From the sequence record NZ_CP040186.1: a stretch of 64,000 bases of DNA. One strand, written 5' to 3'. The DNA comes from a plasmid. The translations under genes were made by a program, and so were the position numbers. The notes below the pieces were generated by a model. The model was given only the letters and a program-made list of their open reading frames with translations, was not told where the DNA came from and ran no database searches. This document shows positions 1 to 49,155 of the stretch, piece after piece. Numbering within the stretch: position 1 is the stretch's first letter; every line of letters starts with the position of its first letter.

Positions 1-897
1 ATGCGAATGAAGAGAAATTTGAAGGCCATACCTGTTCTGGTCGCCGGTTTGTTTACCTCACAGCTTTCTATTGCGGCGGGCTCCGTCTCTGCAGATCCCC
101 ACGCCGGGCACGACATGTCTGCCATGCAGATGCCAGCAGATGAGAATTTCACTGAGATGACGTCAATGGAGCCCATTGTAACTGAGAGCAGAACGCCAAT
201 TCCGCCTGTTACCGATGCCGACCGGAAGGCTGCATTCGGCAATTTACAGGGGCATGCGATTCACGACAGTGCGATTAATTATCTGGTTCTGCTGGATCAA
301 CTGGAATGGCAACGGTCGGATAACACCAACAATTTCAGCTGGAGTGTTAACAGCTGGATTGGAGGCGACACAGATCGGATTTGGCTAAAGAGTGAAGGTG
401 AACGAAGCAATGGGGAAACGGAGGCGGCTGAAGCGCAGTTACTCTGGGGACATGCGGTTGGCCCATGGTGGGATTTGGTTGCGGGTGTCAGGCAGGATTT
501 CAGACCTGCTTCTGCCCGGACCTGGGCTGCTGTCGGTTTTCAGGGGCTGGCACTCTATAATTTTGAGTCTGAAATTACGGGTTTTGTCAGTAATGGCGGA
601 AAAGCAGCCCTTCGTCTGGGAGGAGAATACGACGTTTTACTGACTAACCGGCTCATACTCCAGCCATCCTATGAGGTGAATTTCTACAGTCAGGATGATG
701 AATCGCGGGGTCGCGGCAGGGGACTGACTGACACAGAGCTGGGGCTCCGGCTGCGCTATGAAATACGCCGTGAGTTTGCACCCTATATAGGCGTTTCCTG
801 GAATCAACTTTACGGGAAAACATCCGATATGGCGAAAAGAGAAGGTGAGAAAGACCATCAGGTAGTATTCCTGGCGGGAGCCAGAATCTGGTTTTAA
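1..897 (+). CDS. pcoB: Copper resistance protein B (outer membrane). The ORF starts at the window edge but has a Met start and signal peptide, so is probably complete.
   Basis: 298-aa ORF beginning [18 protein letters not shown] with a Met/His-rich N-terminal region, recognised as PcoB. Followed in order by pcoC, pcoD, pcoR, pcoS and pcoE. Confidence 0.9.
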
Positions 898-35895: not shown

Positions 35896-36534
35896 ATGCG
35901 CAGACTACCTGTTTATCTGCTCATCGACACTTCGGGTTCGATGCGTGGCGAATCAATACATTCAGTGAATGTCGGTGTTCAGGCGATGCTGAGTGCCCTG
36001 CGACAGGACCCCTATGCCCTGGAAAGTGTCCATATCTCTATCATCACCTTTGATAATGAAGCACGGGAATATGTCCCTCTGACGGCACTGGCTGATTTTC
36101 AGTTTGTGGATATTCAGGTGCCCAGTGCGGGTGGGACATTTACGGGAGCTGCACTGGAGTGCCTGATGAGTTGTGTGGACCGGGACATTCACCGGTCCGA
36201 TGGTGAGCAAAAAGGTGACTGGCGACCGCTGGTCTTCCTGATGACCGATGGTACGCCTTCTGATGCATGGGCTTATGGTGAAGCCGTTAAAGAGGTTCAT
36301 CACCGTTCATTTGGTTCCATCATCGCCTGTGCTGTTGGTCCTAAAGCTGGGCATGAGCATCTTAAGCAACTGACTGACAAAGTTGTGGCACTGGAGACAC
36401 TGGATTCGACAGCCTTTTCAGGCTTTTTCAAATGGGTCAGCGCAAGTGTGGCATCAGGAAGTTCGAGTGCGGGGGTCAATACCTCCTCAGACACGCTTCC
36501 CCCTCCTCCACCTGAAATACAGCTGGTCCTTTAA
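35896..36534 (+). CDS. TerY-like vWA-domain protein (second copy)
   Basis: MIDAS motif LLIDTSGSM...MTDGTPSD. Its start abuts the terX stop. Confidence 0.8.
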   Translation: MRRLPVYLLIDTSGSMRGESIHSVNVGVQAMLSALRQDPYALESVHISIITFDNEAREYVPLTALADFQFVDIQVPSAGGTFTGAALECLMSCVDRDIHRSDGEQKGDWRPLVFLMTDGTPSDAWAYGEAVKEVHHRSFGSIIACAVGPKAGHEHLKQLTDKVVALETLDSTAFSGFFKWVSASVASGSSSAGVNTSSDTLPPPPPEIQLVL

Positions 36535-36628
36535 GTCCTTACCGGTATGGCAGGAGGACAACCTTGCCATACATCCTTTCAGTCCATCTAAGAAGTGGAC
36601 GTAATTTATGGCGTGATGGGAGTTTCTT

Positions 36629-37669
36629 ATGAGACGGCTTCCCGTATTCTTTGTTCTGGACTGTTCAGAGTCCATGATTGGTGAAAATCTGAAAAGGATG
36701 AATGATGGCTTACAGATGATCGTTAACGATCTGCGTAAGGACCCCCATGCACTCGAAATGGCCTGGATTTCGGTTATTGCATTTGCTGGTGTCGCCAGAA
36801 CTATTGTTCCTCTCCATGATATTGTGTCTTTTTATCCCCCTCGCCTTCCTGTTGGAGGAGGAACAAGCCTTGGGGCTGCGTTACGGGAACTTACGATACA
36901 AATAGATTCTCAGGTGCGTAAAACCAACCTTGAAGAAAAAGGGGACTGGAAACCTGTGGTTTACCTGCTCACCGATGGACGTCCTACCGATGATATTTCG
37001 GGTGAAGTAAAACGCTGGAATGATTATTACGCGAAAAAAGTGAACCTGATCGCGGTAGGTATGGGGAATTCGGTAGACCTTGGTGTGCTTCGCCAACTGA
37101 CTGAAAACGTTTTACTGTTTACGGAAAGCCAGGACGGAGATTTCACGCGTTTCATACAGTGGATCACTGCTTCCGTCACGGCCCACAGCAGAAGCGTAGG
37201 AGAAGATACTCAACCGCCACTGAAACAGACCGACTATATCGTCAAACTCGCCAAAGATGAAATCACCAGAGCTTACGATGGTAACTGCGTGGTTCTGACC
37301 GGACGTTGCAGCAAAACACGTCGACCCTATCTTATGAAGTATGAACGGCCACCGGCTAAGGTATCAGGGCTTGCCTTTGACCTAAACCTGAACACCTTCA
37401 ATATTACAGGCTGCTATCCGATCGATGAAGACTACTTCTCATGGTCGGATATGGCCGCATCTGGCGTTCAGGTTAATACCAGTGAACTCCATGGCGTTCC
37501 TGGATGCCCGCATTGTGGAAACAGTAGCGCTTTCGCGATGTGCAGCTGTGGGAAGCTTCTTTGTATCGATGGTCCGGATGATGTTATCCGCCCATGGTGC
37601 GAGAAAGGACAGTCCTTTCAGGACGACGGTGGTCATTCCGATTTCAACGTTAGCAGAGGACGCGGCTGA
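36629..37669 (+). CDS. vWA-domain protein with a C-terminal zinc-ribbon-like Cys cluster (third TerY-like copy)
   Basis: vWA MIDAS motif FVLDCSESM...LTDGRPTD, plus C-terminal CPHCGN...CSCGKLLC. Confidence 0.75.
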   Translation: MRRLPVFFVLDCSESMIGENLKRMNDGLQMIVNDLRKDPHALEMAWISVIAFAGVARTIVPLHDIVSFYPPRLPVGGGTSLGAALRELTIQIDSQVRKTNLEEKGDWKPVVYLLTDGRPTDDISGEVKRWNDYYAKKVNLIAVGMGNSVDLGVLRQLTENVLLFTESQDGDFTRFIQWITASVTAHSRSVGEDTQPPLKQTDYIVKLAKDEITRAYDGNCVVLTGRCSKTRRPYLMKYERPPAKVSGLAFDLNLNTFNITGCYPIDEDYFSWSDMAASGVQVNTSELHGVPGCPHCGNSSAFAMCSCGKLLCIDGPDDVIRPWCEKGQSFQDDGGHSDFNVSRGRG

Positions 37670-39435
37670 TGAGCGAATTGAGTACGCTGGAGCATAAAAT
37701 TGTCTCTCTTATTCTGGAAGAGTCAGCGGGAAAATCAGAACCTGAGGTCGCACTACAACTAAGCAACGACCCGGCCATTTGCAAGCTTATAAATGATTTA
37801 AGAGGCTGTGTGATAAACTTGGGGACCGGGGTAGCGTTATCTGACTCCAATGCTCATAAAGAGGTTGACGCCGCATACGTCAGCGAGCAGGTAAGCAGCT
37901 TAGTTCCATTCAGTGATGAACAATCCCCATCTCCCCTTCAGAACGATGTAAACCAAGACCACGAACATGATGCACAAATGGATGTTGTACAAATCAACCC
38001 AGAACCATCCAGGCATGAGATGAATGAACCTCCCGGACATGAGAATGCTGACACGACTAATCAGCAATCTTCAGTGCAGGCAGAATCAGCGATTGCTGAA
38101 GCACAACCGGCTTTGTCAACTGCATCAGAAGCAGAGATGTCGGGCATTACAGATAGTGACGATACATCGGAAACAGCTGAATCTCACAGTCAGTCTGAGG
38201 CGATCTTACTCAGACCAGGGGAAATACCCCACAAAAAGACTGAGGAGCGTTCTCCTGCCATCCAGAAAGCACCTGACGTGTCCATTATTCTTGCAAATGC
38301 CAGGGTCGGTGAATCTTTTGATGCACTGGTAGATATCATTACTGACAGTGGCGTTACGGCAGAAGTGACCGATATTCACTTTCCCCAGGATATCGGTCTG
38401 CTCTTTTGTAAAAACGAGAAGCGCCTAAAAGGAACACCAGCATTCAGCGGAAACTTTGATATGACAGTTAAATGGTCATGTCCCTCATATCCGGATAATG
38501 AAAAAAAGTTACTTTTTGTTGTCAATCCCGACCCAAAAAGCCTCTGGAAAGTGATTGATCCCCCTACCGACACTCCTTTTTTCAAAAAGAGTATCGATCA
38601 TCGGAATATCACCTCTCCAACTGTAAATATCGTTGCTGCAAGTCGACGTGGACGTTCCCATGAACATGCAGGTACCTTCCGCGACGATGATTTTTATATC
38701 AATGTCAGTGATGAATCCGGATGGAACGTGTTGCTGGTGGCAGACGGAGCAGGTAGTGCCCGATTTTCTCGTGAAGGCTCACGCATTGTGGCTGACACCG
38801 TTGGTAATTACCTTTTCAGCCAACTAAAAGCAGAAAAGGGTCATGAAATCAAAGACAGAGTGCTGCGCTGGAACAGCGAAGATCAGCGGGCTGTATGGGA
38901 TTTCATGAATCACCATTTCAGGCAAGCTGCGTTACTGGCTGTGCATAACATCAGCAGTGCAGCAATCATGGCCCAGGACAAAGTAAAGTCATTCTCAACA
39001 ACTTTGCTGGCGACCGTCACTTTTCGTGAGGGCTCTGAACTGTTTGCTGCGTCCTTCTGGCTTGGCGATGGCGCTATTGCTGCATATGGACCGGTCGGAA
39101 AGGTCAGGGTCCTGGGAGCCCCCGATAGTGGAGAATATGCCGGACAGACACGATTCCTTGACGCTGAGGCCGTCAGTGACACTGGATTCAGTAAACGCAT
39201 CAGTATAGGTAAGTGGAATGATGTCTCTCACCTTGTTCTGATGACTGATGGTGTATCCGACCCGTGGTTTGAGACAGACAACGGACTACAGAATCCGACG
39301 AAATGGGACACGTTAATGACAGAGCTGAATCCCCTTCTCTCTGTTCCTGATCTGGCCTCATCGCAGCTGGTGGAGTGGTTAAACTTTTTCTCCCCGGGTA
39401 ATCATGATGATCGGACAATCGTTGTTCTCTGGTGA
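37669..39435 (+). CDS. PP2C-family Ser/Thr phosphatase with a long acidic, low-complexity N-terminal region
   Basis: C-terminal PP2C motifs (LLVADGAGSARFS, LMTDGVSD). Start overlaps the upstream stop. Confidence 0.7.
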   Translation: MSELSTLEHKIVSLILEESAGKSEPEVALQLSNDPAICKLINDLRGCVINLGTGVALSDSNAHKEVDAAYVSEQVSSLVPFSDEQSPSPLQNDVNQDHEHDAQMDVVQINPEPSRHEMNEPPGHENADTTNQQSSVQAESAIAEAQPALSTASEAEMSGITDSDDTSETAESHSQSEAILLRPGEIPHKKTEERSPAIQKAPDVSIILANARVGESFDALVDIITDSGVTAEVTDIHFPQDIGLLFCKNEKRLKGTPAFSGNFDMTVKWSCPSYPDNEKKLLFVVNPDPKSLWKVIDPPTDTPFFKKSIDHRNITSPTVNIVAASRRGRSHEHAGTFRDDDFYINVSDESGWNVLLVADGAGSARFSREGSRIVADTVGNYLFSQLKAEKGHEIKDRVLRWNSEDQRAVWDFMNHHFRQAALLAVHNISSAAIMAQDKVKSFSTTLLATVTFREGSELFAASFWLGDGAIAAYGPVGKVRVLGAPDSGEYAGQTRFLDAEAVSDTGFSKRISIGKWNDVSHLVLMTDGVSDPWFETDNGLQNPTKWDTLMTELNPLLSVPDLASSQLVEWLNFFSPGNHDDRTIVVLW

Positions 39436-39462
39436 GCTTAATGGGACCACAGGTGGGTATTC

Positions 39463-40962
39463 ATGGCAAATATTGTTACATGTAAAACTAAGGATGGAAA
39501 AACCATTCAGTATGTCGATGAAGTCATCGGCTCAGGCTCAATGAAGGATGTATATTTTTCTCCAGATAAATCGTACGTTGTGGCCTTCTATCATAAGCCT
39601 CAGAACGATCAGGCCCGCGAACGTATTAATATGATAACGGGCAGATACCGGCAAAATATTTTCGAACAATCAGGAGGAGATTACTGGAAAGGTCTTTTTT
39701 GCTGGCCTACAGATGTTGTCGAGCACGGCGACAAGGTGGGGATTGTGGTGCCCTCCTATCAGCAGCACTTTTTTTTCCGGTATGGCTCCAAAAATAACGA
39801 TTTTCTCGGGATCAAAGGACGGGAAAAAGAAGGAAAATGGTTCGCCAGCGCCAACAATCAGAATAAGTTCCTCGATCCTCGTGAACGGGGCAATACTCTC
39901 AACTACCTCAAAGTTTGCTTACTGTTAACCCGGGCAGTCAGACGGATGCATGCTGCAGGACTGTGCCACAGTGACCTGAGCTATAAGAATGTCCTGATAG
40001 ACCCTGAACTGGGCCATGCGTGCATCATCGATGTTGACGGGTTGGTTGTACCTGGCAAATACCCCCCTGACGTGGTTGGCACACCAGATTTTATTGCCCC
40101 GGAAGTGGTGACAACAAGCCATCTGCCAAAAGATGACGCTAAGCGTGTACTGCCAAGCATAGCCACCGACCGGCATGCGCTTTCAGTACTGATTTATATG
40201 TATCTGCTTTTTCGTCATCCCTTACGGGGTGGAAAGATCCACGACATGGACGATGAGGTGCGGGATGAATCCCTTGCTATGGGGGAAAAGGCTCTGTTCA
40301 TCGAACATCCGACAGACCACAGCAACGGGGTTAAACTCAGCCAGGTCTCCTCATTTTCTCTTCCCTGGGCCGATCCTCAGAAAATCCCTTACACCGTCCT
40401 GGGACCTTATTTAACACCGCTATTCGACCGGGCATTTATTGACGGGCTGCATGATCCGTCAAAACGGCCGACAGCGGATGAATGGGAAACGGCCCTGGTA
40501 AAAACGGTCGATTTAGTTCAGCCTTGCCAGAATGATGCCTGTGAGCAGAAGTGGTACGTTTTTTCCGGCAAAACGAAACCGGCGTGTCCTTACTGTGGAA
40601 CGCCATACAAAGGTAAGCTTCCGATCCTGAATCTGTATTCATCCAGAAAAGCAGGGTCTTTCAGGCCTGATGACCACCGGCTAATGGTCTGGAGCGGGCA
40701 GTCTGTATATGCCTGGCATGTTAACCGGCTGGTTGCACCCAATGAAAGAACAACAGCTGACCAGAAAAAACGAGTGGGGTATTTCGTTTTCCATAATGAC
40801 CAGTGGTGGCTTGTAAACGAGGGAATACATGGGTTGATGTCTCTACCCGACCGCAGAGTGATAGCCATTGGTGATAAGCTCCGTCTGGATGACAACGCTC
40901 AGTTTATTCTTTCTGCTGAGGAAGGCGGGCGATTGGTGGTGGTTCAGCTTTTGGATAATTAG
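39463..40962 (+). CDS. Ser/Thr protein kinase (Hanks-type) with a C-terminal zinc ribbon
   Basis: Catalytic loop HSDLSYKNVLID, a DVDG (DFG-like) motif, and C-terminal CPYCGT. Confidence 0.75.
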   Translation: MANIVTCKTKDGKTIQYVDEVIGSGSMKDVYFSPDKSYVVAFYHKPQNDQARERINMITGRYRQNIFEQSGGDYWKGLFCWPTDVVEHGDKVGIVVPSYQQHFFFRYGSKNNDFLGIKGREKEGKWFASANNQNKFLDPRERGNTLNYLKVCLLLTRAVRRMHAAGLCHSDLSYKNVLIDPELGHACIIDVDGLVVPGKYPPDVVGTPDFIAPEVVTTSHLPKDDAKRVLPSIATDRHALSVLIYMYLLFRHPLRGGKIHDMDDEVRDESLAMGEKALFIEHPTDHSNGVKLSQVSSFSLPWADPQKIPYTVLGPYLTPLFDRAFIDGLHDPSKRPTADEWETALVKTVDLVQPCQNDACEQKWYVFSGKTKPACPYCGTPYKGKLPILNLYSSRKAGSFRPDDHRLMVWSGQSVYAWHVNRLVAPNERTTADQKKRVGYFVFHNDQWWLVNEGIHGLMSLPDRRVIAIGDKLRLDDNAQFILSAEEGGRLVVVQLLDN

Positions 40963-41013
40963 ATACGGTTTCTCTGTTTAATCCTGACCATTGATATCAT
41001 AACGTCAATATGA

Positions 41014-41031
41014 GCCCACCTTTAGGTGGGC
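41014..41031 (+). other. Perfect 7-bp stem-loop downstream of the kinase gene
   Basis: GCCCACC-TTTA-GGTGGGC with no following T tract. Confidence 0.3.
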
Positions 41032-41130
41032 CATAAATATCGCAGCCGAAACGGAATAATTGCGGCTATAAGGTTTTACTTCAGTGACGAATAAACCTGA
41101 TGACTCATTCTAAAATGTAAAGAGCATATT

Positions 41131-43335
41131 GTGACTTTAGAACTTAAACACCCTCGTGAGATCTATCAGATTATCTCTGAAGAGCTGGACAAAATCATAC
41201 ATTCATTACAGAGCCAAAGCGGTGATAAATATTTCGATGACACCCAGGCCGACGCGCTCAAACAATTAGATCTACATCAGGCAGAGTTACGTGCTCAGCT
41301 AGTCCGGTTGGAAAAGAATGCCGAGTGGAATACGTTTACTGTCGCTTTTTACGGGGAAACCGGGGCAGGGAAATCCAGCATCATTGAAACGCTGCGTATT
41401 CTGCTTCGCGAGCCCGGAAAACTGAATGATCAACTTAATTTCCGAGCATTTCAGGAAAAGTACAGTTTAAGCGAGAGTAGTTTTCAGAAACTTGCACAAG
41501 ATACGGAACAAGCAGAGAAGAAACTTACCGGGATCATTAAGCAAATCGCAGGCGTTAGACAGGTTTTTGATCAACAGCATCTGGCCGACCTGAAGCATAT
41601 TGAGTCTCTGCAAAGTCAGGTCAATGAACATAAACGTACGGCTTCGCTGTGGCAGAAGCTACTCTTCTGGTTTCGAAAGTTGCCACAGGAAATCGAACTC
41701 GACACGGTCAGACAACATTTGCAGGATACCGTTGCCTCACATGAATGCGCTATCCGCAAGTTACTCAACGTTCAGGAGGAGGCTCGGCAGAAAAAAAATG
41801 AGTTAATTCAGAAGAATCTGGAGTCTAAAAGCCACCTGCCGGAATTGGGTGCAATGGCCGACGGTGCCATCATCGGTGATGGTAGCTCTGACTTCACTCG
41901 ACAAACTCAGCGTTATAACGTGGAGCTTGATGGTTATAAGTTCGCTTTGCTGGACGTCCCCGGTATTGAAGGTAAAGAAGGGTTAGTGCTTAAAGAGATC
42001 GAAGATGCAGTTCAAACGGCTCATGCGGTGTTCTATGTCACCAACCAGCCTGCTCCGCCGCAAACAGGTGATGATCAACGTCAGGGCACACTGGAAAAGA
42101 TCAAAACACATCTCAAAGATCAAACCGAAGTGTGGACGATTTTCAACAAGAAAATTATCAATCCGATGGCAATCATGAAACAGCCACTGATTAAAGATGA
42201 TGAAGAAAATAGCCTAGCTGAGCTCGATAAAAGAATGCATGAAAAGTTAGGTACAAACTATCGTTGCGTGTTTCCCCTCAGCGTTCTGCCAGCTTTTTTA
42301 GCCTCTACGGATCATTTTGCTCCCGATTCACAAAATGCTAAACGACGCAAAAAATTTCTTGATAGCTTTAATGCCGATGAACTTTTGGAAATATCTCACA
42401 TGCGGTCCTTTATCCGGATGCTCAGTGAAAAGTTACTGGGTAACAGTGCCGACCGAATTAAAGCCGCTAACTTCAGCCAGGCCAAAGGCAGGGTTGATGA
42501 AAGCAATGCCAAAGTACGGCATATTCACGAGATCTTCTCTACTGTGGCCGAACAACTGGAACTGGACAGTGACAATTCCTGCAAACAGCTGCGTCAAAGT
42601 TTCAGTTTGTTCCGGCACCGGCTGGAAGCCCTCAGTGCCAAATTGGTTGATGAACTGGTCATCTCCGTACGCGCTTCTGTCTACTCACTAATTAATCAAG
42701 ATATCAGCAGCGATGAATTCAAAAGTAACCTGAGAAGTTGCATTACACAGCAGCAGGATGCATTCAGCGAAAAGTTAAGAAAAGGCATTCAGGAGGACGT
42801 AGAAATATTCCAGCAAGATTCCAAAAATATACTCACACGGTTTGAACAATACAGTCAGGAATTGTTCAACACCTATGGCAAGCTCGGTGCTACAAAGTTC
42901 AATTTAGACTTTGATATCAATATCAAAATGGATAACGGTGTTAATGGATGGGGGCTGCTGGCTGGGCTGGCGGGGATTGCGCTTGCTCCTTTCACCGCAG
43001 GAGCAAGCCTCTGGGTGGTCGGGGCGGCTGTACTGACATCTCTGATTTCCGTCGGCAAGGCCCTAGTTGGATTTTTTAGTACTTCATACAAACAATCCCA
43101 ACAACGTAAAGCCACAAATGAAAATCTGGTGGTGATACGCTCACAAATACAGACAGCCATTGATTCTGCTCTGAAGGACATCACGCCGCAAATGCAGAAA
43201 ACAATTGAACAGATTGAACAGGCTCTAAAATCCCCGGGCGAGCAGGTCGCGGCTAAAGCCTGGCTCCTTAAAAGCGCTACCCAAAAACTTGACCTTCTTT
43301 CACGCCAGATCAGTAATGCAGGTAACTTGCCATGA
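41131..43335 (+). CDS. Bacterial dynamin-like large GTPase (first of a tandem pair)
   Basis: P-loop GETGAGKSS, G3 DVPG, long coiled-coil regions, and a C-terminal hydrophobic paddle (GWGLLAGLAGIALAPFTAGASLWVVGAAVL). Confidence 0.7.
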   Translation: MTLELKHPREIYQIISEELDKIIHSLQSQSGDKYFDDTQADALKQLDLHQAELRAQLVRLEKNAEWNTFTVAFYGETGAGKSSIIETLRILLREPGKLNDQLNFRAFQEKYSLSESSFQKLAQDTEQAEKKLTGIIKQIAGVRQVFDQQHLADLKHIESLQSQVNEHKRTASLWQKLLFWFRKLPQEIELDTVRQHLQDTVASHECAIRKLLNVQEEARQKKNELIQKNLESKSHLPELGAMADGAIIGDGSSDFTRQTQRYNVELDGYKFALLDVPGIEGKEGLVLKEIEDAVQTAHAVFYVTNQPAPPQTGDDQRQGTLEKIKTHLKDQTEVWTIFNKKIINPMAIMKQPLIKDDEENSLAELDKRMHEKLGTNYRCVFPLSVLPAFLASTDHFAPDSQNAKRRKKFLDSFNADELLEISHMRSFIRMLSEKLLGNSADRIKAANFSQAKGRVDESNAKVRHIHEIFSTVAEQLELDSDNSCKQLRQSFSLFRHRLEALSAKLVDELVISVRASVYSLINQDISSDEFKSNLRSCITQQQDAFSEKLRKGIQEDVEIFQQDSKNILTRFEQYSQELFNTYGKLGATKFNLDFDINIKMDNGVNGWGLLAGLAGIALAPFTAGASLWVVGAAVLTSLISVGKALVGFFSTSYKQSQQRKATNENLVVIRSQIQTAIDSALKDITPQMQKTIEQIEQALKSPGEQVAAKAWLLKSATQKLDLLSRQISNAGNLP

Positions 43336-45026
43336 ACGAAACAATCAACGCATTTAATGCCCAACAAACTCATGCTTTGGAACTTCTGCAAAAGCTTGAA
43401 GCCTTCCTACAGCAAGGGGCTCTGGCGGGAGTTCCCATCGATCCAGTGCTCAGCGGGAAAATACACAATGCAATCGCCAGTTTAGCTGATGAAAAACTTA
43501 AGGTAGCACTCATCGGCGGTTTTTCAGAAGGTAAAACCTCAATCGCTGCGGCCTGGATGGAGGAGCTCGATAAGTCGAGCATGAAGATCAGCCACCAGGA
43601 ATCATCCAATGAAGTGAAGGTGTACGACGTTGGTCAGGATTTCGTCCTGATCGACACTCCGGGGCTTTTCGGTTTCAAAGAACAGGTAAACGACGATAAC
43701 CATTCCATAGAAAAGTACAAAGACATCACAAAAAAGTACGTTAGTGAAGCCCATCTGGTGCTTTACGTAATGAACCCGACCAACCCGATCAAGGAAAGTC
43801 ACGAGGAAGACCTGACATGGCTTTTCCGCACACTCGATTTATTGCCACGCAGCATATTCGTGCTCAGCCGTTTTGACGAAGTGGCCGATGTCGAGGATGA
43901 AGATGATTATGCGCACAACCTGAATATCAAACGAACAAATGTGGCGAAGCGCCTCGGCGAAATGATCAGCCTGACCGCGCAGGAACAGGAAAACTTGTCT
44001 ATTGTTGCGGTAGCAGCTAACCCCTTTGATCTGGGGACTGAGCACTGGCTGGCGAATGGCGAGCAGTTTAAAGCGTTATCCCACATCACCAGCCTGCAAG
44101 CCGCAACTACTGATAAGATACAACACAGTGGTGGCAGCAAGGCTCTGGCTAATGACATGCGCAGCAGTGTTATCCGCGATATTTTGCACAACCAGTTGCC
44201 CGTCGCGATTGATAACGACGAAAAAATATCTCATGAAGTCCGCAAGCTCGACAGCCTGTATAGTCGTATGAAAACGGAGCTGGCACAGGCAGATCGGGAA
44301 ATCGAAAACACCGTGATTAATCTGCGAGAATTTGTCATCCGCTACTTCGCCGATCTAATCGTGCAAGCCCAGGGATGCAGCATGGAAACCTTCAGCGAGT
44401 TCTTTGAACGTGAAGTGGGCGATGAAGGTATCATCGTCAGCATGCGACTGGAAAACGAATTCAGCCGACAGATTCAGCCTATCGAACTCAACATGGAGAA
44501 AATGCAACTGAGTTTTGATATTGAAATTAATCAGTTCAATACCACCATCAAAGCGCTTGGCAAACAAGGTATCAATCATGTCCTTAAGGGGGATCTGATC
44601 AACAACAAGACCGTGCTTGGCGCCCGCGATGGTATCGTCGGCATGGGTAAGTTGTTCGGTAAAGATTTCAGCAGTGTATTAAAATTCAAACCCTGGGGAG
44701 CGACCAAACTGGCGAAAGGGGCCAATGGTGCGTTGATCGCAGTCGGTATAGCGTTGGAGGTGTGGGACAGTTACCAGCAATATCAGCGAGAACAAGCATT
44801 CCAGAAAGCCATCGCAGGTATGATTGAGAACTTTGAACAGCATCGTAAGAATCTGAAAATACTGATTGAAAAAACTCAGTTCAAGGAGCAGTTCTTTGGC
44901 GATTTGAAAAGTAATGCCAGAGAACTTGAAGCCAGTCTGAATGCGAGCAGGGAGAGTCAGCAACGGTTCCAGGCATGGCGTGCAATGGCAGAAACTATCG
45001 AAGGTGAATTCAGGAAGCTGGACTAA
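43332..45026 (+). CDS. Bacterial dynamin-like GTPase (second of the pair), translationally coupled to the first
   Basis: P-loop GGFSEGKTS and G3 DTPG. The ATGA overlap with the upstream gene indicates an operon. Confidence 0.7.
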   Translation: MNETINAFNAQQTHALELLQKLEAFLQQGALAGVPIDPVLSGKIHNAIASLADEKLKVALIGGFSEGKTSIAAAWMEELDKSSMKISHQESSNEVKVYDVGQDFVLIDTPGLFGFKEQVNDDNHSIEKYKDITKKYVSEAHLVLYVMNPTNPIKESHEEDLTWLFRTLDLLPRSIFVLSRFDEVADVEDEDDYAHNLNIKRTNVAKRLGEMISLTAQEQENLSIVAVAANPFDLGTEHWLANGEQFKALSHITSLQAATTDKIQHSGGSKALANDMRSSVIRDILHNQLPVAIDNDEKISHEVRKLDSLYSRMKTELAQADREIENTVINLREFVIRYFADLIVQAQGCSMETFSEFFEREVGDEGIIVSMRLENEFSRQIQPIELNMEKMQLSFDIEINQFNTTIKALGKQGINHVLKGDLINNKTVLGARDGIVGMGKLFGKDFSSVLKFKPWGATKLAKGANGALIAVGIALEVWDSYQQYQREQAFQKAIAGMIENFEQHRKNLKILIEKTQFKEQFFGDLKSNARELEASLNASRESQQRFQAWRAMAETIEGEFRKLD

Positions 45027-45040
45027 ATAGCATTTTCTCT

Positions 45041-45300
45041 TGAACCGCCCCGGTAATCCTGGAGACTAAACTCTTTGAGAGAGGTAAACAGGATGGCTAA
45101 AAATACACGTTTTCCTCGATATATGGCAGCAGACCGTCAGCATGGTTCTGGAATGCGAGGACGGGTATGACTCACAATGGGCAGCCCTGAGCTCCATCGC
45201 TCCGAAAATCGACTGCACGCCGGAGACCCTTCGTATCTGGTTGCTTCTGTATGAACGTGATGCTGGTGGTGGTGATGGTGGACTCTCCACTATTTAGGCG
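45041..45300 (+). mobile_element. Remnant of an IS629/IS1203-like (IS3-family) left end with a degraded orfA
   Basis: IRL-like TGAACCGCCCCGGTAATCCTGGAGACTAAACTC, then MAKNTRF... at 45083, and in another frame ...IAPKIDCTPETLRIWLLLYERDAGGGDGG. It is truncated after about 260 bp. Confidence 0.5.
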
Positions 45301-45811
45301 ACAAATACACTGGCCTGTTTGTAATCCGAGCGTCCTGTTTCTTCTTTCATGGGATAGGTTGTGACGCTGAATACCAGACAGGTCAGTTTTTACATGGTTC
45401 AACGTAATAAAGGTCTTAGACCCTGTACACGATTCTGTGTAAATGCCTTTTCTCAGTAGTGACCGTCCAGGCGATCCCCGTAGCTGGCACCGACGACCTT
45501 CGCCATGGTGGTCTGCAAATTCTCAATAAGTCTACTGTAGCCAAATCGCAGGCGGTTCAAGGAACAGCCCTTAGACAACAGACATTATAGAATTCTGTTG
45601 AGTTTTTTATTACTTCTACCTAAATAAATTTGCATATTACCGAACCTAGCCAGGCTATGGTTGACCTATTCCCAGTTGCTTGACACAGGCCGTTGTTAGC
45701 AAGATTCATGATGATTCAACTACGGACTTCTGCTCTTCGCTCATACCTGGCATCCGAGATATTTTCAGGTTTCGAAATACTCGAATTCAAGGCAACAAGT
45801 AAAAATGGCCG

Positions 45812-46882
45812 CTATCTCTCATGGCACAGTTCAAATTCGTTCAACTGCTCTAACGCTTTCGCCACACTCTGGAACATCAGATGTTTTTCCTCATGCTTCT
45901 GTGACAGCCGAGAAACGACGGTAAACACACTTCCGCTGCTCTCAGGCCAGCAGTCGTCATGAAGTGCTGGTATCAACATCTTTCTTGCTTGATGTTGCAA
46001 TGCAGGAGTCGTCAGACTACAGATGTACGTTCGTACTTCAAACTGTCTTCCAGGTGTTTTGTCTAGAAAAAGTACCACATCAGATTTACTCACCCAGTGC
46101 GACAACCCGAAGCGCAGTGCCGGGTAACCTTCCCAATGATTAAGTGCCGTTGTGACCTCATAACCACGTTCAGAAAAGTGCTCTGTCAGAAACCGTAGGC
46201 CTTCCTCCTGAAGTGATTTCACCACAGCATTTTTCAGTAACACCGCTTCCTGAATATTACGCAAATTTTCGAGAACGAAGATTTCTGTCTCTGCTGCAAT
46301 CGTATTTTTACCCATCAGTGTCTCCAGATGTAGAATGAATTCGCGCAGCAAAACCTGCCATTTATTGAGCGGGGAAGAAATGCATGCCATGCCGAGCCTG
46401 GGCGACAGAACAGAAATAAACATACTGTAGCTTATTCCTGTCCAACCGGCAGGAGCCAGTCCTTCCGGCGACAGAACCACTAGGAACGGTGTCTTATCTG
46501 GATGTTTTTGCTCCAGATACCCACTGTAATCATTGAAAGGATTGTTCAGCTGGTGCCAGATTTTATTCTCCAATACCATGGCCCATTCTTTCGACTCAAG
46601 TAGCAAATCGATTCGAGTTCCTTTCTGGGTCATAACCTCACGGGCTGGTGGAGAGAGAAGTGATGCATCAACATGGGCTGGCAGGCACTCCAGAAGGGCC
46701 CCAAGAACCAGTGTATTCAGTCCATGGGGCGCATCCGGATCAATAAAGAAAGCGAGTAAATCGCTGACAGGGTTTTCATAGTGTCCACGGGCACCAACCG
46801 AAAATATATTGGTCTCACTTTTTTCAGCAACAGGCAGTGACTTGAGGCGAGTCAGTAATTCTTCCAGAGCAGGCAGGTCCAT
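45812..46882 (-). CDS. PD-(D/E)xK nuclease-superfamily protein, function unknown
   Basis: Motif RIDLLLESKEWAMVLENKIW has the D...E-x-K arrangement. 356 aa from the Met at 46882. Flanked on both sides by IS remnants. Confidence 0.5.
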   Translation of the reverse strand: MDLPALEELLTRLKSLPVAEKSETNIFSVGARGHYENPVSDLLAFFIDPDAPHGLNTLVLGALLECLPAHVDASLLSPPAREVMTQKGTRIDLLLESKEWAMVLENKIWHQLNNPFNDYSGYLEQKHPDKTPFLVVLSPEGLAPAGWTGISYSMFISVLSPRLGMACISSPLNKWQVLLREFILHLETLMGKNTIAAETEIFVLENLRNIQEAVLLKNAVVKSLQEEGLRFLTEHFSERGYEVTTALNHWEGYPALRFGLSHWVSKSDVVLFLDKTPGRQFEVRTYICSLTTPALQHQARKMLIPALHDDCWPESSGSVFTVVSRLSQKHEEKHLMFQSVAKALEQLNEFELCHER

Positions 46883-47933
46883 CGGTTTCTCCGCAGCGGC
46901 TTTCCCTGGACAGAAACATACCAACAAAAAGAGCCTTGGCATAGGGGGGCCTGTCTGCCCGCTGGCATTGGGTGCACGATAATTGCGGTGGATTTCAAAG
47001 TTAACAGTCCGCTTCGTGCTGTGAGTTCAACCGATGGACGCAACACACTTATTGAACCGTTCTGCGGGTGATTCATAGTCTAGCGTTTTTCTCGGCCTTT
47101 CGTTGAGCTGTCTGGCAACACTGTTAAGTCTTTGCTGGCTGTGAACCGATAAGTCAGTTCCTTTTGGAAAATATTGTCTGAGCAATCTGTTTGAATCGCC
47201 ACAGATAGTCTAGACACTTCTGATAATATTGATTTTCATATTCCGTCGGTGGCATCTGATTACTCGAACCATGCCGACGCTTACTGTTATAAAACATTCG
47301 ATGTAATCAAAAATATCGCTGCGGGCTTCTTCCCGCGTCCCGTAGATCTTTTTCTTTATCCGTTCACGCTTCAGGAGCTGGAAAAAACTTTCTGCAACTG
47401 CGTTATCGTGACTGTTACCGCGGCGGCTCATGCTGCCCTCCAGTCCGTGTGATTTCAGGAACGATTGCCACTCATGGCTTGTGTACTGACTACCTTGATC
47501 AGAATGAACCTGCACCTGTTTTTGGGGATTACGTCGCCACACGGCCATCAGAAGCGCATTCAGGACAATATCTTTTGTCATCCGGGGTTGCATTGACCAG
47601 CCGATAACTTTGCGTGAGAACAGGTCAACAACTACGGCCAGATACAGCTAGCCTTCGTGGGTTCGGATGTAAGTTATGTCCGTTACCCAACGTTCATCCG
47701 GTGCTTCCGGGTTGAACTGCCGCTGGAGTTTGTTGGGTGTCACGATACTGGCTTCACCTATACGCGCTCGTGGGCTTCGATACCCGACCTGAGCCTTTAT
47801 CCCGGCACGCTTCATCAGCCGCCAGACCCGGTTAATCCCGCATTGTTGCCCGCTATCTCGCAGGTCGAGATGGATCTTGCGATAGCCATAAACACAACCG
47901 GACTCCAGCCAGAACTGTTTGATTTGTCCTGTC

Positions 47934-49155
47934 TGTAGATTCAATTGGTCAACGCAACAGTCATGTGAAAACATGTAATTGCGGAGGATTGTTGGATGAG
48001 ACGGACATTTACAGCAAAAGAAAAAGCATTTGTTTTTGAACTATGGAAGAACGGAACAGGCTTCAGTGAGATAGCTAATATCCTGGGTTCGAAACCAGGA
48101 ACCATCTTCACTATGTTAAGAGACACTGGCGGCATAAAACCCACTGAACGCAGGCGGGCTGTAGCTCACCTGACCTTGTCTGAACGCGAGGAAATACGTG
48201 CTGGTCTGTCAGCCCAAATGAGCATTCGTGCGATCGCTACTGCGCTGAATTGTAGCCCTTCGACGATTTCACGGGAAGTTCAGCGTAATCGTGGCAGGCG
48301 GCTATTACAAAGCCGTTGATGCTAATAACTGGGCCAACAGGATGGCCAGAAGACCAAAACCGTGCTTACTGGATCAGAATATGCCGTTGCGGGAGCTTGT
48401 TCTGGAAAAGCTGGAGATGAAGTGGTCTCCAGAGCAAATATCAGGGTGGTTAAGGCGAACGAAGCCGCGTCAAAAAACTCTGCGAATATCACCTGAGACG
48501 ATTTATAAGACGCTGTACTTTCGTAGTCGTGAAGCGCTACACCACCTGAATGTACAGCATCTGCGCCGTTCGCATAGCCTCCGGCATGGCAGACGCCATA
48601 CTCGCAAAGGTGAAAGAGGCACGATTAACATTGTGAACGGAACGCCAATCCACGAACATTCCCGGCATATCTATAACAGGCGCTCTCTTGGTCACTGGGA
48701 TGGCGATTTAGTATCGGGTACAAAAAACTCTCATATAGCCACACTTGTAGACCGAAAATCACGTTATACGATCATCCTGAGACTTAATGGCAAAGATGCC
48801 ACCTCGGTGAATCAGGCTCTTACAGATAAATTCTTGAGCTTGCCGCCTGAACTCCGGCAATCACTGACATGGGACAGAGGAATGGAGTTGGCCAGGCATC
48901 TGGAATTTACTGGCAGCACAGGGGTTAAAGTTTACTTCTGCGATCCTCAGAGTCCCTGGCAGCGGGGAACAAACGAAAACACTAATGGGCTAATCCGACA
49001 GTACTTTCCCAAAAAGACATGCCTTGCCCAATATACTCAACATGAGCTGGATCAGGTTGCAGCTCAGCTAAACAACAGACCGAGAAAGACACTGAAGTTC
49101 AAAACACCGAAAGAGATAATCGAAAGGGTTGTTGCGTTGACAGATTGAATCTACA
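47934..49155 (+). mobile_element. IS30 (1222 bp)
   Basis: Ends TGTAGATTCAATTGGTCAACGCAAC ... GTTGCGTTGACAGATTGAATCTACA. The transposase sequence matches E. coli IS30 InsI nearly residue for residue. Confidence 0.85.
47996..49148 (+). pseudogene. IS30 transposase split into two overlapping ORFs (47996..48319 and 48291..49148), an apparent frameshift
   Basis: IS30 transposase is normally a single 383-aa ORF. Here the frame changes in the 48291-48319 overlap. Confidence 0.6.

Follow-up and report, generated by a model that had tools for sequence, protein, structure and literature searches.

Millman and coworkers showed that a two-gene dynamin operon of Bacillus vietnamensis protects Bacillus subtilis against the jumbo phages AR9 and PBS1, and that a P-loop mutation in either gene abolishes defense (10.1101/2022.05.11.491447). 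Two-gene dynamin operons adjoin known defense systems in 60% of cases (10.1101/2022.05.11.491447), and the system was named Eleos, consisting of LeoA and LeoBC (10.1101/2022.12.12.520048). A search for literature after 2022 on the mechanism of Eleos or its link to jumbo phages found nothing beyond these two reports. A gene pair of this kind is carried by the plasmid of sequence record NZ_CP040186.1, of which a stretch of 64,000 nucleotides (the window) was analyzed. The pair, leoBC followed by leoA, is probably a canonical two-gene Eleos (or "Dynamins") system that is self-contained and lies on a cassette of ~3.96 kb at the end of a ter/TerY-P cluster (Table 1).

Another well-described relative is the Leo operon of enterotoxigenic Escherichia coli (ETEC) H10407, in which LeoC, LeoB and LeoA are encoded in the tia pathogenicity island. 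LeoC bears the P-loop and Switch 1 whereas LeoB contains the rest (PMC4159319). Michie and coworkers proposed that heterodimerization of LeoA with LeoBC is central (PMC4159319). Further relatives are the tandem or fused paralogous dynamin-like proteins (DLPs) of other bacteria, including Campylobacter jejuni DLP1/DLP2, Nostoc BDLP1/2 and B. subtilis DynA, which share with the pair described here the GTPase head, the helical neck and trunk, and the hydrophobic paddle. B. subtilis DynA reportedly requires membrane binding for phage defense (PMC12998192).

Every feature of Eleos that can be tested from sequence was found at the plasmid locus: leoBC and leoA are co-directional and in the published order, the PADLOC models for both proteins are matched over their full length, the P-loops of both proteins are intact, and the orthologous cassette resides in defense or mobile islands, as in the operons described by Millman et al. 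(2022). The LeoBC model (PDLC03841) matches the first protein with an E-value of 1.7e-154 (residues 2-732 on model positions 8-600 of 601), and the LeoA model (PDLC03839) matches the second with an E-value of 3.4e-173 over residues 1-561. The second protein also belongs to the NCBIfam family NF041922, "LeoA/HP0731 family dynamin-like GTPase" (679 bits, cutoff 325), contains the Pfam domain DLP_helical (3.6e-117) and is homologous to ETEC LeoA, matching the sequence of its crystal structure (PDB 4AUR) over residues 5-522 (E 2.1e-62). LeoA is encoded directly after LeoBC in 84 of 84 loci, which comprise 80 species-representative loci with 10-kb flanks, 3 close relatives and this plasmid. The pair is typical of the described system, would be called automatically by standard defense finders and does not represent a new kind of system. 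It differs from the tested Eleos in that the B. vietnamensis operon comes from a Firmicute while the present copy is gammaproteobacterial, plasmid-borne and known from sequence.

The stop codon of leoBC and the start codon of leoA share the four bases ATGA at 43332-43335 (the sequence at 43326-43340 is CTTGCCATGAACGAA), and leoA is predicted to be translationally coupled to leoBC through this overlap. The pair is under purifying selection, with dN/dS (the ratio of nonsynonymous to synonymous substitution rates) of 0.09-0.26 against the orthologs of Kosakonia and Yersinia, in which the gene lengths, the GTG start and the overlap are kept. In the RefSeq annotation of an identical plasmid the same two coding sequences are present, leoBC as "hypothetical protein" and leoA as "LeoA/HP0731 family dynamin-like GTPase". 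Because of the low dN/dS, the conserved lengths and start, and the agreement with RefSeq, leoBC and leoA are real genes and not chance open reading frames.

Table 1. Features of the leoBC-leoA locus and its surroundings. Positions are those of the window unless given as residues of a protein.
Feature	Position	Strand	Remarks
TerY-P triad at the end of the complete ter cluster	35896-40962	+	Two vWA/TerY proteins, PP2C phosphatase and Ser/Thr kinase; Pfam VWA, TerY_C, PP2C_2, Pkinase
TerY-P kinase gene	39463-40962		
Hairpin GAGCCCACC-TTTA-GGTGGGCC	41013-41033	+	At the 3' end of the ter/TerY-P block, outside the cassette; kept in pINF201.2
Probable Eleos cassette (63-bp leader, leoBC, leoA)	41068-45028	+	~3.96 kb; DNA homology to Kosakonia and Yersinia islands
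Cassette leader, 63 bp	41068-41130	+	~92% identity to the Kosakonia and Yersinia copies; other ter plasmids lack it
leoBC	41131-43335	+	GTG start, 734 aa
LeoBC G1 P-loop, GETGAGKS	residues 75-82		
LeoBC helical hairpin insert	residues ~115-234		AlphaFold2 model
LeoBC DxxG, DVPG	residues 275-278		
LeoBC paddle	residues 603-652		50-residue Gly/Ala-rich hydrophobic segment, Kyte-Doolittle maximum 1.85
leoA	43332-45026	+	ATG start, 564 aa
LeoA G1 P-loop, GGFSEGKT	residues 62-69		
LeoA DxxG, DTPG	residues 108-111		
LeoA short paddle-like hydrophobic stretch	residues 460-478		
IS3-family (IS629-like) left end and orfA remnant	45029-45290	+	77-80% identity to annotated E. coli IS3-family transposase elements
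Rest of cassette downstream flank, 62 bp, displaced by the IS remnant	45419-45480	+	90% identity to Kosakonia (L002 13899-13960)
PD-(D/E)XK nuclease gene, PADLOC candidate PDC-S26	45812-46942	-	PDLC04981 E 3e-133; Pfam PDDEXK_4

The first protein is a fused form of the split LeoC/LeoB of ETEC H10407, since separate PADLOC models for LeoC and LeoB cover its two parts (residues 9-251 and 197-727, respectively). In ETEC, LeoC is a protein of 206 amino acids with a C-terminal membrane anchor, whereas the window encodes a single 734-residue chain in a different genomic context. No hydrophobic window of at least 19 residues occurs at the LeoC/LeoB boundary of LeoBC, which is thus not of the split ETEC type; instead of a full transmembrane segment, the tip of a helical hairpin lies where ETEC LeoC ends in its hydrophobic anchor. 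This hairpin is inserted between the P-loop and the DxxG motif, which are ~190 residues apart and are both invariant in an alignment of 18 homologs. The arms of the hairpin differ in length among homologs but the tip, RTASLWQKLLFWFRKLP (residues ~170-186), is conserved: S172 is invariant, and W174 and K176 are nearly so. The core of the tip is hydrophobic (SLWQKLLFWF, residues 172-181) and, by analogy with the LeoC anchor, may provide a second membrane contact in addition to the paddle.

When the LeoBC profile was compared with the sequences of solved structures, no relative was detectable other than P-loop-level similarity to IRG/TGTP2 and apolipoprotein-like coiled coils, and the fold was therefore approached with an AlphaFold2 (AF2) model and Foldseek. 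The model, which was built from the 18-sequence alignment, has a mean pLDDT (predicted local distance difference test) of 77 and a pTM (predicted template modeling score) of 0.58. It predicts a GTPase core in which the P-loop strand (69-75) is split from the other strands (260 onward) by the hairpin (helices 115-170 and 185-234), very long helices (439-521, 527-567 and 631-730) that make up the stalk, and a low-confidence, disordered region (593-649) at the site of the hydrophobic paddle. The structures in the PDB most similar to the model are Nostoc BDLP (2J69/2J68), mycobacterial IniA and SynDLP (E ~5e-6). G-alpha subunits rank next, followed by MxA/MxB, mitofusins and the Campylobacter DLP1/2 pair. 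The retrieval of G-alpha subunits is explained by a shared helical insert, as the helical domain of G-alpha is inserted at the same point of the G domain as the LeoBC hairpin.

LeoBC and LeoA are paralogs, because each matches the model of the other (LeoA model on LeoBC, 3.7e-21; LeoBC model on LeoA, 4.2e-18). With the general Pfam model Dynamin_N, LeoA scores 29.3 bits (above the cutoff of 27) and LeoBC 17.8 bits (below it). The neck-and-trunk stalk with paddle of bacterial dynamins was found in both proteins, as the DLP_helical domain in LeoA and as long helices around residues 603-652 in the model of LeoBC. A preliminary description of this DNA, made from its letters, had proposed two GTPases of 734 and 564 amino acids that overlap by ATGA, carry a P-loop and a DxxG motif each, and form a bacterial dynamin-like pair with long helical stalks of the Eleos/LeoA-LeoBC type. 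The coordinates, overlap and motifs were located as described, the stalks agree with DLP_helical in LeoA and with the BDLP/IniA/SynDLP-like model of LeoBC, and the hidden Markov model searches that the description had suggested gave strong matches to the LeoBC, LeoA, NF041922 and DLP_helical models. It had also placed a hydrophobic paddle at the C-terminus of the first protein. The paddle is present, but a helix of ~80 residues follows it and its position is subterminal.

The plasmid system resembles that of ETEC in that LeoA is encoded last and that a paddle-like, Gly-rich hydrophobic tip is present. It is also similar to the systems of Pseudomonas and Stutzerimonas, whose LeoBC homologs are 45-52% identical to the plasmid LeoBC over all 734 residues and are followed by a LeoA with 65-70% identity. 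Most of these homologs have 1000-1081 residues (P0020, P0025 and ~80 further proteins; loci L005-L011 and others). They differ in possessing an additional N-terminal alpha/beta-hydrolase domain (DUF726/DUF900) of ~280 amino acids and a hairpin longer by ~67 residues; LeoBC of the window has neither and represents a minimal form. The hydrolase domain could be an effector (lipase or esterase), and a description of it was not found in the Eleos literature examined. By analogy with heterotypic DLP pairs, heterotypic oligomerization on a membrane would be expected of LeoBC and LeoA. These pairs, however, belong to a different subfamily, and the similarity is at the level of the fold only (Foldseek E ~5e-6 to 5e-3, TM ~0.2). 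B. subtilis DynA differs further since it is one fused, two-headed housekeeping polypeptide, whereas the pair consists of two open reading frames on a horizontally moving cassette and is not of the DynA type.

The limits of the cassette were mapped by DNA homology. Continuous homology to a chromosomal island of Kosakonia cowanii (93.4%) and to islands of Yersinia enterocolitica (89.5%) extends from 41068 to 45028-45032. Homology to a ter plasmid without Eleos (Klebsiella pneumoniae pINF201.2) runs through the kinase gene and the conserved hairpin and ends at 41070. Thus, the ter segment and the Eleos segment meet at a 3-bp junction (ATA), and the breakpoints on both sides delimit the pair and its leader as a discrete cassette, which appears to have been joined by recombination to the end of the ter/TerY-P cluster. 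The leader presumably holds the native promoter and ribosome-binding site (AAGAG, 7 nt before the GTG). On the right, the insertion sequence (IS) remnant directly abuts the leoA stop codon and breaks a flank that is contiguous in Kosakonia, where the counterpart of the displaced 62 bp directly follows leoA.

The hairpin downstream of the kinase gene has a perfect 7-bp GC-rich stem (GCCCACC-TTTA-GGTGGGC) and no U-tract, and it is conserved in ter plasmids without Eleos such as pINF201.2. A 76-nt region containing it folds at -23.6 kcal/mol (z = -3.0). This structure may mark the 3' end of the ter/TerY-P operon. The hairpin was not called by the terminator scan, and the promoter and terminator scans in general yielded sites no more numerous than in shuffled sequence. 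Since the hairpin lacks a U-tract, read-through from the kinase operon into the pair is possible.

The region is 100% identical to that of the Raoultella planticola plasmid pHH15_1, a conjugative IncFIA/IncFII plasmid with pco, cad, ter, mer and ars genes. Three related plasmids from Raoultella and Klebsiella contain it as well, the rest of the 72,556 plasmids searched lack it, and 5,426 complete E. coli genomes yielded no close match to the pair. LeoA homologs (E 1e-20 or better) are present in 8 of the 72,556 plasmids. Plasmid carriage of Eleos is therefore rare, and the window demonstrates that a conjugative heavy-metal-resistance plasmid can host it. In Kosakonia, the cassette resides in a chromosomal defense island between a homolog of Tiamat TmtA and PD-Lambda-3 A and B plus Lamassu (LmuA, LmuA, LmuC and an SMC-like protein). 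The Yersinia copy occupies an island that has a tyrosine integrase at its boundary and contains AlpA, RadC and CbtA genes. Both contexts are as expected of a defense cassette and agree with the published co-localization figure.

A mechanism can be proposed from the published facts on relatives and from the anatomy of LeoBC and LeoA. The Gly/Ala-rich paddle, possibly together with the hairpin tip, would tether LeoBC to the inner membrane, and LeoBC would recruit soluble LeoA into a heterotypic dynamin-like oligomer. The assembly would use nucleotide hydrolysis to remodel or seal the membrane, which would block or delay productive infection, most plausibly by large phages. The membrane binding, heteromerization, nucleotide specificity and phage phenotype of the pair are thus presumed by analogy with its relatives.

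Several observations weigh against Eleos as the identity of the pair or against its function in defense. The sole validated Eleos comes from Bacillus and was active in B. subtilis against only two jumbo phages (10.1101/2022.05.11.491447), and a defensive role of enterobacterial systems with fused LeoBC, including this one, is presumptive. LeoA of ETEC by itself failed to bind nucleotide or lipid and was reported to be periplasmic, and the ETEC archetype LeoABC has been linked to vesicle-associated secretion instead (PMC4159319). The G4 motif for guanine specificity is atypical in both proteins (NKKI without the Asp in LeoBC, SRFD in LeoA). The global TM-scores of the LeoBC model to solved DLPs are low, as is expected for hinged, elongated proteins, and the Foldseek result is supporting but not decisive. 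A consensus promoter scan called no promoter inside the 63-bp leader, so that read-through of the pair from the ter operon may still account for its expression. Finally, one of the four plasmids, pNUITM-VR1_2, carries an IS3-family element within leoBC (L086 7638-12332) that divides the gene product into a 636-residue "GTPase" fragment and a 106-residue tail while the kinase is retained, which indicates that Eleos is dispensable to the plasmid. The PP2C gene of pNUITM-VR1_2 is also truncated.

The position of the pair raises the question of whether it belongs to the ter/TerY-P stress response, as an accessory that repairs or remodels membranes after damage by tellurite, colicins or phage and is controlled by the kinase and phosphatase. 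The preliminary description was correct that the pair lies directly downstream of the ter kinase gene (the gap is 168 bp, on the same strand), that it arrived as accessory cargo and that an IS629-like remnant bounds its far side. Possible read-through past the hairpin would favor such a role, as would the plausible concern of both modules with envelope or phage stress, TerY-P having been reported as an anti-phage system type active against T7-like phages (PMC7699616). An accessory role is nevertheless highly improbable. The kinase region is present in 988 plasmids, mostly of Klebsiella at ~80% identity (megablast against plasmids), but only 4 of these carry the pair, and homologs of TerY, PP2C and the kinase were found within 10 kb of none of the 83 other LeoBC-LeoA loci (tblastn with the window proteins). 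The breakpoint at 41068-41070 is a recent junction of two unrelated segments, the same cassette occurs as a unit in chromosomes without ter, and one plasmid tolerates disruption of leoBC while keeping the kinase. Because of these counts and the sharp junction, a conserved ter/TerY-P component was rejected, and the adjacency to ter appears to be incidental and Eleos independent of ter. The hint of a special ter-linked pair in the preliminary description did not hold, since the adjacency is limited to four IncF plasmids from Raoultella and Klebsiella that are nearly identical; the synteny survey that it had proposed revealed no conserved linkage, with the pair absent from the other 984 ter-kinase plasmids. 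A lead from Helicobacter pylori, based on the family name "LeoA/HP0731" and on a paper with both TerY-P and a dynamin, was dropped, as the dynamin-like CrfC homolog and TerY-P are in separate gene clusters in that paper.

The function in secretion that has been proposed for ETEC LeoABC, acting on outer-membrane vesicles or periplasmic cargo, would leave the pair without a role in immunity. LeoA of the window is a full-length homolog of ETEC LeoA, but this function is improbable for the plasmid pair given that the context of tia or a pathogenicity island is absent, that the other homes of the cassette are defense islands (Kosakonia) and an integrase island (Yersinia), and that inspection of the N-terminal sequences by eye gave no obvious signal peptide in either protein. 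Moreover, Millman et al. have reinterpreted the Leo operon as a defense system on the basis of the 60% co-localization and direct assays (10.1101/2022.05.11.491447). It is quite improbable that the pair acts instead as a general guardian of membrane integrity like B. subtilis DynA, sealing pores that arise from antibiotics or phage lysis and delaying lysis without a specific sensor-effector immunity. Hydrophobic paddles in both LeoBC and LeoA do fit a direct activity on membranes. However, DynA is a single two-headed housekeeping protein while the pair is a mobile two-gene cassette, and its sporadic, horizontally transferred and island-located occurrence is the signature of dedicated defense genes. 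A guardian function differs from Eleos mainly in specificity, and mechanistically the two overlap more than they exclude one another.

As a probable Eleos system, the pair adds one plasmid-borne enterobacterial example to this defense family. The compact native cassette of 3.96 kb has defined boundaries and is clonable for work on Eleos in E. coli and Klebsiella, including work with therapeutic jumbo phages. No new link between dynamins and tellurite resistance is revealed.

TerY-P, Eleos and the downstream PD-(D/E)XK gene appear to form a small defense islet of independent modules at the end of the ter cluster. The assignment of TerY-P rests on Pfam domains and literature because PADLOC v2.0.0 gave no match for the vWA and PP2C proteins of the triad and only weak matches for the kinase. 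The PD-(D/E)XK gene is an independent module since the segment 45726-47044 occurs in ~300 plasmids without Eleos. It is unlikely that TerY-P, Eleos and the PDC-S26 nuclease work together in a transferable islet, for instance with kinase signaling or the nuclease coupled to dynamin-mediated membrane sealing, although the reported activity of TerY-P against T7-like phages is a point in its favor. If they did cooperate, Eleos on a conjugative IncF plasmid would provide transferable protection against jumbo phages for Klebsiella and Raoultella. A weaker lead points to the PD-(D/E)XK gene as a third partner that may recur with Eleos. Such a neighbor is found within the 10-kb flanks of 1 of the 83 other loci (tblastn), giving 2 of 84 with this plasmid. 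The other locus is that of Pantoea conspicua, in which LeoA is followed immediately, on the same strand, by a 49%-identical PD-(D/E)XK homolog (L041 5407-6486).

Further downstream, an IS3-family orfB is left as two fragments on the minus strand (47210-47974). An IS30-like transposase is encoded on the plus strand at 47996-49148 as two overlapping open reading frames (107 and 285 amino acids), which suggests a frameshift. On the other side of the ter cluster, between it and the pco copper-resistance operon, an "Abi family protein" gene and a ParDE toxin-antitoxin pair are located within the first ~8 kb of the window (L087 13778-14704; pHH15_1 155677-156603) and are possibly further defense or addiction cargo.

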